Shown: positions 9,001 through 12,000, counted from the stretch's first letter. The stretch: DNA of 64,000 bases from Spiroplasma endosymbiont of Dioctria linearis (GCF_964030865.1 NZ_OZ034984.1:620001-684000); one strand, 5' to 3'. Made by a program: the numbers.

Positions 9001-12000
9001 TTTATAAGCCAATTGTATTTCTTCAAACAAACCTTTTTCTATTAAGCTAAGTACCCTATTGTTTATTTTACTATATAATTCCTCTCTTTTGGCAGATATT
9101 CCAATAATTAATAAATTATTATAAAGATACCTTTTATTGTCCTTTGTTAGTTTAGTTTTTGTTATTCCTGTTAGTTCAATAAGCTCCAAAGCTCTAATTA
9201 ATCTATATCTATTATTCATATGAATTTTTTTGGCCTCTAAACTATCTTTTAAATTTAAAAAATCTCAAATCTCCTGATTTGATTTTGTATCATATTTTTT
9301 TGCATAATTATCAATATGATCATCACTGCTAAAGTTATAATCCATTAAAACCGAATTAATATAAAGTCCTGTTCCACCAATAAGTATAGGAGTTTTTTCG
9401 TTCTCCAATACTTTTGCAATTTTTTCTCTTGCATGCTTTTGAAATTCTGCTACTGAGTAGCTCTCATTAACTTCTTTTATAGAAAGTAAATGATGTTTTA
9501 TTCCTTGCATTTCTTGTGTTGTTATTTTATTTGTTGCTATATCTGTTCCTTTAAAAATTTGAGTAGAGTCTGCGTTAATACATTCTCCATTAAATTCCTT
9601 TGCAATTTTAATTGATAGGTCTGTTTTCCCACTTGCTGTTGGTCCAACTATAACTATTATTTTATTCATAATTATTACTACCTTTCAAAAATTGACAAAA
9701 AAAAATATTCCCACCCGCTATCAAATGCATGAGAAAGGAAATACTTATTTATTGAGCGGTCTTTAATATCTCACGCAAACATAAAGAATAACAAATATTC
9801 TTGGCGTCCCTAAGGACATAATAATTATATAATAAAAAAACCTTACATAAATAAGGTTTTTTTATTATTTTTTTGTTACTGCTGATCTAATTTTAATGTT
9901 TACTTTTCTTGGTTCAACTATTGAAGGTTGGAATAAAACAGTTTTTCTTGTTTTTCCTAGTTGATTACCAGCAATTTTTACTTCTTTTTTTTGATTAAAA
10001 AGACCTGAAATATCTCTTCCACCAGTAACTACAGCTACTCAGTTTTCATTTAATTTACGTTTAACTTTTGCATTTAATCAATGTAAAGCAACAACGTTAT
10101 TTACATCATCTCTTTCACCATCTTGATCGATTAAACTATAAACTCAACCGAATTCTGATGCTTGTCCATATTCGCTAACTTTAATAATTGCTCCAGCAAT
10201 ATCTTGTCTATAGATAGATGCGTTTGTTGCTGAAACTGGATCTGATTTCTCTCAAATAAATTTTTGTTGTCCATCAGTTAATTTTATATCTTTATTTATA
10301 ATTTTCTCTGGTTTTGGATCTGAAACTTTTTTTCTTGTTTGAATATGCTCAGGTCTCATTTTATTTGAAGCAGCTCTTTTAACAGCTGTTGTTTTAGGTT
10401 TTTTTGCAGTTGTTTTTTTTGCAATTAATGTTTTAGTAGTCGATTTTTTAGCAGTTGTTGATTTTTTTACTGCTACTTTTTTTGCACTTGTTGCTTTTTT
10501 TGCAGTTGTACTTTTTCCTGTTGTTGATTTTGCAGTTGCCATATAGTAACACCGTCTTTCTAATAAAAATACTAAATTTTAATAATAATTTTATTTTTTA
10601 TTATCAAAATATGATTTAATTATACATTATTTTTTAAAACTATTCTACTCAAATAATAATAGATAAAAAAATAATATAATTTACTACACTATTTTCTTAT
10701 TTTTAGTTTTTCAATAATTGTTTTATATCTCTCAACATCTTTTTTAAACAAAAAGTTTAATAAATGTCTTCTTTGAGCTACCTTTTTTAATAAACTTCTT
10801 CTTGAAGTAATATCTTTTTTATGTAAATTTAAGTGCTCTGTTAGATTTTGAATATCTTGAGTTAAAATAGCAATTTGAACTTCAGCTCTACCTGTGTCAT
10901 TTGTATTAACTCCGAATTCCTTAACAATATTTTCAATTTGTGTTTTAGAAACCATGTTTATAACCCCCCTATTAATCCTTGATTGAAAATTGTTCTATCA
11001 TAGAAAAGATTTAGGGTAAATCAAATCAAAGATAAAACATCAATACTTAAAAAGTATATCAAATTTAAAGGAGTTTTTATAATTTATTTAAAAATTCAAT
11101 ATATAATGAATCTTTTTTACTGTGTATTTTAACAATGTTGTTTTTCAATCTTATTTCTAAACTCTTACCATCAATTTCTACTAAATAAAGGCCATTAGCA
11201 ATTTCTATATTGTAGTCTTCCATTAAATAACTATCTTCACTAATTTTTTTAAATCTAGCTGTAAAGTTATCATCTATTATTTTATTAACATTGCTAATTT
11301 CTCCCTTTATTAAATTATCTTTTAAAAGTGAGGTTGAAATATTTAAAACTCTTTTAAAAACTATTATATTTTCAACTCCAAAAAAGTTTTGTAAAAAGGA
11401 AATGTTTCCTTCCCCTTTATAAGCAAATCTAAAATCATCACCTACAACTATTTTTTTGACATTTAGTGTTTCCTTTAAAAATAGACAAAAATCATTGGCA
11501 TTTAATTTAATAGATTCACTATTAACATCAATTTCAAATAGATAATCAGGTTTATAATTTCTTTCAATATTTTGATACTTATCATTTCTTGACTGTAAAG
11601 TTTTTTTTATTCCCTTTAAAAAATCTGAAACTTTTTCAGAGAATGTAATTACTGATCAAATAAAATTCTCTTCTTTAGCTATTCTTTTTGTTTCAGAAAA
11701 AATTGCTTTATGCATTTTATGAAGACCATCAAAAAAACCAATACACACAACATTTCCCTTTTCTTGCAAATTAAAATATTCACTGTTTTTAAGAAAGGTT
11801 TGATATTTAATCATAATATCCATTCCTTTCAGCTTCAGTTAATTGATCTAAAGGAACCTCATCTCACAAACCTCTTTGACATTTATAAAGGTCATGGGCA
11901 ATATGTTTATAAATTGCCATTACCTCTTTAGAGTCATTAATAATAAAAATTATTGGATAATTAATACCATTTAAACTAATTGCCTTACCTTGTTTAATAT

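Follow-up and report, generated by a model that had tools for sequence, protein, structure and literature searches.

The 64,000-nucleotide window analyzed here, from the Spiroplasma endosymbiont of Dioctria linearis (G000), contains a gap of 195 nt between the minus-strand genes g00517 and miaA, and this gap raises a simple question. Is the unannotated element of about 115 nt that it holds a leader of miaA or an RNA gene in its own right, and what could such an RNA do? The element was better conserved than its surroundings: the mean identity to G000 across the 19 other genomes of genus g1 was 92%, compared to 75% and 65% for the upstream and downstream flanks, respectively. No conserved reading frame was present, and the lengths varied by 1 to 2 nt among copies. 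A survey of the whole genome had described an RNA gene that is missing from the annotation and that has its own −10 box, a pair of hairpins at the 5′ end, and three covarying, mutually crossing helices; this description is supported by the analysis below.

Organization of the locus

The upstream neighbor g00517 (9865..10542, minus strand, like all features given here) encodes a histone-H1-like basic tail and an HNH-like domain that lacks the catalytic His after its GW motif. The names of its homologues identify the relatives of the window as Apis-clade species. Judging from the sequence, an A-tract, hairpin, and U-tract at 9838..9866 form a putative terminator of g00517 that insulates the RNA gene from the upstream gene. 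This is followed by a −10 box, TATAAT (9824..9829), and a 6-nt spacer to G9817. The TATAAT was invariant in all 19 genus g1 rows, and a TATAAT, TAAAAT, or TAATAT box was found 6 nt ahead of the first G in 48 of the 49 copies and 7 nt ahead in the remaining one. This promoter spacing predicts that transcription starts at G9817, the first G of P1, a 4-bp 5′ hairpin with a tetraloop (9806..9817). The second hairpin, P2 (9784..9802), has 5 to 7 bp, a variable U-rich loop, and stems that differ between clades.

The remainder of the element consists of the strands of three helices. The 5′ strands of helices a, b, and c are at 9770..9777, 9755..9761, and 9737..9745, and they pair with the 3′ strands a′ (9726..9733), b′ (9713..9719), and c′ (9704..9712), respectively; helix b has a 5-bp core, CCGCU/AGCGG, and b′ directly abuts c′. 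The 9-nt linker from b to c (9746..9754) contains three invariant unpaired A's (A in 31 of 31 rows in each of the three columns), which likely make tertiary contacts. The c′ strand, the likely terminator stem, leads into a tract of seven U's (9697..9703) that is the predicted 3′ end, probably a leaky one. Downstream is miaA (8749..9669, ATG at 9669), which encodes tRNA dimethylallyltransferase (Pfam IPPT, E = 2.8e-71).

Three mutually crossing helices

The order of the parts is P1, P2, a-b-c-a′-b′-c′, and U7, and helices a, b, and c have no base in common. When a crossing-helix descriptor was applied to the 1.23-Mb genome, this locus ranked first of 8, and none of 1,000 dinucleotide shuffles of the element yielded any three-helix knot. 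In a MAFFT alignment of 27 rows, 89.9% of the cells were paired and 11 of the 26 pairs showed two-sided changes; 0 of 500 shuffles scored as high, and slid controls were 39 to 52% paired. Helix c was only 76% paired on this alignment because the rows of genus g30 are one column off.

Helices were also registered by a script in 45 distinct sequences with 31 distinct cores, after G069, G076, and G080 were dropped because of indels or decay. The pairing figures from this set, which lean favorable because the registers maximized pairing and the tree was built from the same columns, were 123 of 123 cells for P1, 245 of 248 for helix a, 154 of 155 for the 5-bp core of helix b, and 277 of 279 for helix c. 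Two P1 pairs were changed on both sides. The stem of P2, whose sequence is clade specific, reached 5 bp or more in 42 of the 44 distinct copies. Helix a, which was found by RNAalifold unprompted, showed 7 joint compensatory events on the tree. Helix b was the least variable of the three crossing helices, with one C-G to U-A change and only two joint events; the position flanking its core was A-U, C-G, or U-A in 16 rows and A·G in 15. Several positions of helix c had three to five pair types. In total, 15 joint compensatory events were placed on tree branches, a number reached by 0 of 5,000 partner permutations (0, 9, and 44 of 5,000 for helices a, b, and c, respectively). Helices a and c contained 30 and 41 G-U cells, which would become A-C mismatches on the opposite strand. 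Therefore, the structure is an RNA of the minus strand. Of the 131 columns in the RNA alignment, 17 were invariant.

One way to view the fold is as an H-type pseudoknot formed by helices a and c, with helix b joining its two long loops. Three non-overlapping helices that cross one another and are kept by covariation constitute an ABCABC topology, or pseudotrefoil. The absence of overlap, the covariation of all three helices, and the conserved linker lengths suggest that a, b, and c are formed simultaneously. Coarse three-dimensional packing, solved from 54 of 60 and 53 of 60 starts, shows little because a short-linker control also passed (50 of 60). The RNAfold z-score of the element was only −1.45, from a program that cannot form pseudoknots.

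The survey had also allowed for a conformational switch. This is not favored, since no bases are shared and a, b, and c all covary. The alternative fold offered by RNAfold was not kept in distant copies, and inspection of the 49 copies revealed no pair of conserved on and off folds that would exclude each other. The near-complete pairing of the three helices, their lack of shared bases, and their many G-U pairs instead favor a static knot in an RNA of the minus strand.

Termination and the link to miaA

Outside g30, all 28 copies had 6 to 8 U's in the 8 nt after c′, and in none of the 28 was there a downstream hairpin below −4.0 kcal/mol. In g30, the U tract was lost in 21 of 21 copies (0 to 4 U's), and 18 of these 21 had a separate hairpin terminator shortly downstream (−5.4 to −10.1 kcal/mol). 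Because the U tract is exchanged for a hairpin terminator in g30, helix c and the U tract are likely the RNA's own terminator in most clades. The U tract at the end had been noticed in the survey; this probable role of the U tract and helix c had been overlooked.

miaA lies directly downstream of 46 of the 49 copies, and its dependence on the RNA promoter probably differs between clades. A promoter-like TTGAAA...TAAAAT or TATAAT site follows the second terminator of g30, ahead of miaA, which thus appears from its upstream sequence to have its own promoter in this genus. In the window's clade, the two consensus promoter sites found for miaA end at or inside its start codon. There is therefore little room for a separate promoter, and miaA probably depends on read-through. 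Three genomes do not have miaA behind the RNA at all. An insertion-sequence rearrangement in G077 moved miaA and its promoter-like site away and left the RNA before thyA. In G041, the RNA is near rpsO and carries the most compensatory changes of all copies, and miaA is 147 kb away behind obgE-nadE. In G048, the next gene after the RNA is a tRNA-Gly gene. The RNA copies of G041 and G048 are fully paired. This retention of the RNA away from miaA means that whatever function is conserved does not depend on a downstream miaA. Taken with the loss of the U tract and the added terminators in g30, and with the promoter-like site of miaA there, the three loci without miaA make a stand-alone RNA gene likely, with a promoter that also feeds miaA in the window's clade.

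Distribution of the RNA

By blastn, the RNA was found in 20 of 20 genus g1 genomes including G000, in agreement with the count that the survey had given for the Apis clade. With a model built from 27 diverse copies, 49 copies were detected, distributed over 48 of the 82 family genomes. All scored 69 bits or more, and the next best match scored 26.5 bits; three limited family genomes were only partly scored with this model. The number of other family genomes in which the RNA was found thus rises from 44 of 81 in the survey to 47 of 81. There is one unit per locus. The survey had called the RNA single copy, to which G065, with two copies, is an exception. The RNA was also said to be kept even in degraded genomes, which is not always so: it was not found in G083, a complete genome within g30, and was visibly decayed in G076. 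Furthermore, a pair in helix a, b, or c was broken in 10 of the 21 g30 copies. These broken pairs and the absence in G083 indicate that the RNA is not essential everywhere.

Outside the family, nothing above noise was detected in 262 order and class genomes, which supports the restriction to Spiroplasma-type genomes. Of the models, R2 was built with the g30 register of helix c, which is shifted by one column for the g1 rows, and R3 uses helix a. With R3, a single weak match outside the family (75 nt, 30.5 bits) was obtained among 119 genomes of the order sample and no match among 143 genomes of the class sample. Fourteen of 21 weak R2 matches (20 to 27 bits) were inspected, and none had the promoter and knot. 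No homologue was found in the non-carrier G061 (R2 and the descriptor on 800 of 833 kb, a promoter-hairpin scan on the whole) or in the non-carrier G088 (R2 and the promoter-hairpin scan on 800 of 812 kb), where the sole promoter-hairpin candidate was a leader before thrS. A search of the genome collection with the core pattern gave 13 matches, of which 9 were true copies, all from Spiroplasma, and 4 lacked helix a or c. The same pattern gave 17 matches in metagenomes, including one true copy (L235) with the order g00517-RNA-miaA, and none in viral contigs.

Co-occurrence with miaA, isoprenoid genes, and fib

miaA was present in 47 of the 79 scored genomes, and all 47 carry the RNA. The only RNA carrier without miaA was G048 (85% complete), in which ispG and dxr were not found either. 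fib was present in 53 of the 79 genomes, among them all 48 RNA carriers. Five genomes, G042, G083, G088, G089, and G090, had fib without the RNA, and all five were without miaA; MreB was present in the three fib-bearing, RNA-less genomes examined for it. The survey had counted eight such fib-bearing genomes and had tied the RNA to fib. That tie holds in the sense that every carrier has fib, and it is weakened by the five genomes that have fib and no RNA. One of these, G083, has neither the RNA nor miaA and contains ispG and dxr as decayed remnants, and it has kept fib and MreB. In G078, miaA and ispG were broken and the RNA was decaying, whereas G076 had a decayed RNA and an intact miaA and G079 showed the reverse.

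A comparison of proteomes returned 42 G000 proteins that were common to the carrier G045 and weak or missing in the non-carriers G088 and G061. Judged from their sequences, these included isoprenoid, Fe-S, purine, and MreB genes, with Pfam confirmation for miaA, ispG, dxr, and MreB only. The RNA thus tracks miaA and the isoprenoid module better than it tracks fib; such a pattern could also arise from adjacency and from genome reduction in common, and the number of independent losses behind it is only about three. As an obligate partner, g00517 was rejected, since it was not found in 10 of the 48 RNA-bearing genomes. Its AlphaFold model (pLDDT 50) was too poor for a structure search.

Comparison with known RNA classes

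No Rfam 15 family reached its gathering threshold between 8500 and 11000, as the survey had also found. Six sub-threshold matches were obtained, the best of which (STnc370, 37.6 bits versus a cut-off of 54) corresponded to the upstream terminator on the plus strand, and no ribozyme or riboswitch family matched the RNA at E values up to 10. The housekeeping RNAs are accounted for elsewhere in the genome: SRP RNA at G000:C1:1049402, RNase P RNA at 748460, and tmRNA and 29 tRNAs at other sites. 6S RNA, a rod of about 180 nt with a central bubble, was rejected because RF00013 had no match in G000 at E values up to 1 and because the fold is a knot. A riboswitch or attenuator is always located in the leader of the regulated gene; 46 of the 49 copies precede miaA, and 18 of these are cut off from it. 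A T-box leader, which has a stem I with a specifier loop and a UGGN bulge in its antiterminator, has no Rfam match here, and the UGG that follows b′ has been lost in g30, G041, and G045. A base-pairing sRNA would carry a conserved single-stranded seed complementary to mRNA, and the only unpaired stretch conserved here is a 6-nt AU-rich linker; the best other match of the RNA in G000, the one genome searched, was 15 nt long (E = 0.1). A type III antitoxin RNA, made of tandem pseudoknot repeats ahead of a gene for a toxin RNase, does not fit a locus with one unit and miaA as the downstream gene. HEARO or omegaRNA, which goes with an obligate neighbor for an active HNH or IscB-type nuclease, does not fit a neighbor whose HNH-like domain lacks the His and which was not found in 10 carriers. 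Mimicry of the MiaA substrate was also considered. MiaA requires a helical stem capped by a 7-nt loop that contains A36-A37-A38; the P2 loops are 4 to 8 nt, U-rich, and variable, and the AAA of the linker is AAG in 4 of 31 rows.

In genus g29, the rpsO/tRNA-Gly/membrane-gene block holds another gene that resembles a small RNA; it too has a TATAAT-6nt-G start and a 5′ hairpin, and it is a candidate for MCS4 of Mycoplasma capricolum. It scored at most 9.2 bits with model R3 with filters off, folds as three plain hairpins, and lies on the other side of tRNA-Gly from the place of the knot RNA. RF02268, guessed as MCS4, proved to be MtlS and gave no match. In the open literature, no published description of the RNA was found, leaving aside the supplements of two motif surveys (PMC11109978; bioRxiv 10.64898/2026.10.21.760802), whose main texts contain neither Spiroplasma nor miaA and whose supplements could list the motif.

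Expression data

Of four RNA runs examined, one covered the element, by a 338-nt contig over 9464-9793 with a depth of 4.6, for which DNA is a possible source; the depth of the upstream gene in the same run was 80.7. This metatranscriptome contig bridges the element and miaA. Small-share RNA runs of this kind are no evidence of expression level.

Published data are available for two Apis-clade species, for which the list of RNAs found among intergenic reads comprises only tmRNA and RNase P RNA (PMC5726471). SRP RNA is also missing from that list, which was obtained with TruSeq and Velvet, so the approach was probably blind to RNAs of this size. Gene order is unchanged in the tables of that paper, where the gaps ahead of miaA measure 196 and 201 nt; on the basis of gene order and relatedness, the RNA presumably lies in these gaps. 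In its supplement, the RPKM values of miaA were 2783/2341 and 7140/3135 in the two species, compared to 360/313 and 292/349 for truB. Those of the upstream gene were 5808/5075 and 4838/2367, such that miaA was higher in one species. The values are compatible with the presence, in the gap, of a promoter-terminator unit that is strong but leaky.

Proposed mechanism and alternatives

The explanation that we consider best, at a probability of roughly one half, is a stand-alone RNA with a static knot that terminates itself at its last helix and works in trans, by its shape, on a protein. Within this explanation, the stand-alone static knot is itself quite probable, and action through protein binding is evenly balanced. 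As for the partner, MiaA or the isoprenoid/tRNA-modification module is a tentative guess, the fibril or MreB is an unlikely one, and g00517 is a very long shot. A more specific proposal, that a free-standing pseudotrefoil with helices of 7 to 9 bp and hairpin-less self-termination acts on MiaA or senses isoprenoid supply, is doubtful.

The RNA would be transcribed from its own −10 box with a start at G9817, and helices a, b, and c would form in this order while the chain emerges. Helix c/c′ beside the U's would end most transcripts, at a terminator that remains leaky. The 5′ tetraloop hairpin and the 3′ knot may shield the RNA from RNase J and RNase R, on which Mollicutes depend; among the Mollicutes surveyed, RNases J1 and J2 are reported in all and RNase R in most (PMC4014445). 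Read-through would supply miaA and an RpiR-like gene in the window's clade, which could explain the long linkage of the RNA and miaA. The RNA itself would bind a protein through its shape.

The most probable alternative, though it is rather unlikely, is a cis-acting leader of miaA in which DMAPP or another isoprenoid-pathway metabolite, or MiaA itself, stabilizes the knot, closes helix c, and stops transcription. A promoter, structured leader, U tract, and ribosome-binding site are the anatomy of an attenuator, the invariant unpaired A's could line a pocket, and an aptamer embedded in a terminator has a precedent (PMC6478431). The position of miaA after 46 of 49 copies, the presence of the RNA in all 47 miaA-bearing genomes of the 79 scored, and the joint loss in G083, where ispG and dxr decayed and fib and MreB were kept, also agree with such a leader. 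However, the U tract is absent from the 21 g30 copies, 18 of which are followed by another terminator, and miaA has a promoter-like site of its own in this genus. Nor is there a miaA downstream of the RNA in G041, G048, and G077. G041 has the most compensatory changes, and in G048 (85% complete) the RNA is retained and none of miaA, ispG, and dxr was found. Moreover, no conserved antiterminator was found.

A stand-alone RNA for helical motility that binds Fib or MreB filaments, with miaA as a passenger of its promoter, would account for fib in all 48 carriers and for G048, which keeps the RNA, fib, and five MreB matches without miaA. It is improbable given the five fib-bearing genomes without the RNA, one of which, G083, is complete and belongs to a genus of carriers. 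MreB genes are among the 42 proteins shared with G045 and weak or missing in G088 and G061, but the same filter returned isoprenoid, Fe-S, and purine genes and hence reflects shared ancestry. It is decidedly improbable that the RNA is a small ribozyme, or a free RNA that binds a metabolite, whose active site is built from helix b and the invariant A's. Its compact fold of several pseudoknots with a small invariant core resembles the double-pseudoknot ribozymes described in PMC3390330, yet there is no Rfam ribozyme or riboswitch match at E values up to 10, no conserved cleavage-site dinucleotide is evident, and the RNA is single copy with its own promoter and terminator and no mobile or repeat context. 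Finally, the RNA could be the Spiroplasma counterpart of the MCS small stable RNAs of Mycoplasma capricolum, as the g29 gene in the same block, with its TATAAT-6nt-G start and 5′ hairpin, might suggest. This is hardly credible because that element reaches at most 9.2 bits with R3, and consists of three plain hairpins on the other side of tRNA-Gly, and because no knot-like locus was found in 800 kb of G061.

Relation to known systems and significance

Few natural RNAs have three helices that all cross one another. One data set contains 51 ABCABC structures, compared to 1688 ABAB (H-type) and 365 ABACBC structures (PMC3390330), and the Escherichia coli alpha-operon leader is called the only known ABCABC example in PMC3152363. 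Like the knot described here, the alpha-operon mRNA pseudoknot has three mutually crossing helices. It binds S4 and is a translational operator in an mRNA leader, whereas the Spiroplasma knot, with helices of 7 to 9 bp and a terminal U tract, does not overlap a ribosome-binding site and is not followed by a ribosomal-protein operon. Viral exoribonuclease-resistant RNAs (xrRNAs), which are compact three-way-junction pseudoknots, are similar in that a compact pseudoknot could stall an exonuclease; in contrast to these, the Spiroplasma RNA is chromosomal and bacterial, has the knot at the 3′ end of its own transcript, and has no Rfam match. MCS4 is a small stable RNA of Mycoplasma capricolum of about 125 nt, similar in length, from the same family, and likewise a stand-alone gene, but its g29 candidate has no knot.

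The HMP-PP (thiS motif) riboswitch also has a pseudoknot-capable structure that overlaps an intrinsic terminator before an enzyme gene, with the difference that its aptamer and terminator are mutually exclusive and the terminator is a classic hairpin (PMC6478431). The Spiroplasma RNA has no hairpin terminator, and the helix adjacent to the U's belongs to the knot itself; no competing fold was seen to be conserved, and the RNA is retained where the downstream gene is not. The raiA motif RNA and other orphan bacterial RNAs are likewise highly structured and conserved (PMC12968392); the Spiroplasma RNA is shorter than the raiA motif, confined to one family, and without an Rfam match. We regard it as a new family of RNAs that is unusual in its fold and in its proposed mode of termination and has a narrow range. 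That narrow taxonomic range limits its general interest, and if the RNA were a true miaA leader, it would be a variant of the terminator-embedded switches.

The long, covarying helices of this knot are contained within only about 75 bases, and this compactness suits probing and structure work. The swap between the U tract and a hairpin terminator among clades suggests that a pseudoknot helix can replace a terminator stem. Genome-reduced Spiroplasma keep few noncoding RNAs, and the retention of this one across most of Spiroplasma therefore points to an unrecognized function. If the proposal of a trans-acting or sensing pseudotrefoil is true, such an RNA would couple tRNA isopentenylation to metabolism in these wall-less bacteria.

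Similar loci elsewhere

Model R3, the covariance model of the RNA, gave a sole match outside the family, a 75-nt stretch of comparison genome G122 (G122:C1:686277-686351) that scored 30.5 bits and is probably a chance match. A putative small RNA gene of ~105 to 125 nt, different from the RNA, lies between tRNA-Gly and a membrane-protein gene in four genomes of genus g29 (minus strand; loci L190:1520-1645, L210:1515-1650, and L211:1515-1630). It is made up of a TATAAT, a 5′ hairpin, a conserved unpaired stretch, and a terminator, and its comparison to Rfam yielded no match. It may be one of the MCS RNAs, the small stable RNAs of Mycoplasma capricolum. 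In G088, thrS is preceded by a short promoter-hairpin-terminator leader (G088:C1:604516, minus strand), perhaps a reduced T-box, which was rejected as a homologue of the RNA.

Genomic surroundings of the RNA

G065 carries the RNA twice (G065:C1:651120 and 662326), with 11 kb between the copies, one preceding an intact miaA and the other a broken one; this is a local duplication. At locus L052 (G048:C29), a ribosome-binding site and an ATG with a stop three codons on lie just past the U tract, and this short frame, which leads into the promoter of tRNA-Gly, resembles a scar left where miaA and rpiR were deleted. In several genomes of carrier genus g30, miaA degrades jointly with the isoprenoid (MEP) pathway, with ispG carrying nine stops in G083 and one in G079, split into four pieces in G078, and frameshifted in G067.

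The fibril gene, fib (G000:C1:613938-615470), lies a little beyond the left edge of the window, and ~14 kb separate it from the RNA in this genome; the two are near each other in most genomes of the window's genus, g1, but distant in most other carriers. In the g1 loci inspected, miaA is followed by an RpiR-like HTH gene (window 7961-8740, minus strand), whose counterpart reaches 1500 to 9500 RPKM in the tables published for two Apis-clade species (PMC5726471), unusually high for a regulator. Upstream of the RNA, g00517 (window 9865-10542, minus strand) fuses a K/A/T-rich, histone-H1-like tail to an HNH-like domain with GWVYSL at the place of the catalytic GWxxDH motif; Pfam HNH proteins are distant relatives. 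Its expression is also high in those tables (PMC5726471), and it is possibly a nucleoid protein.
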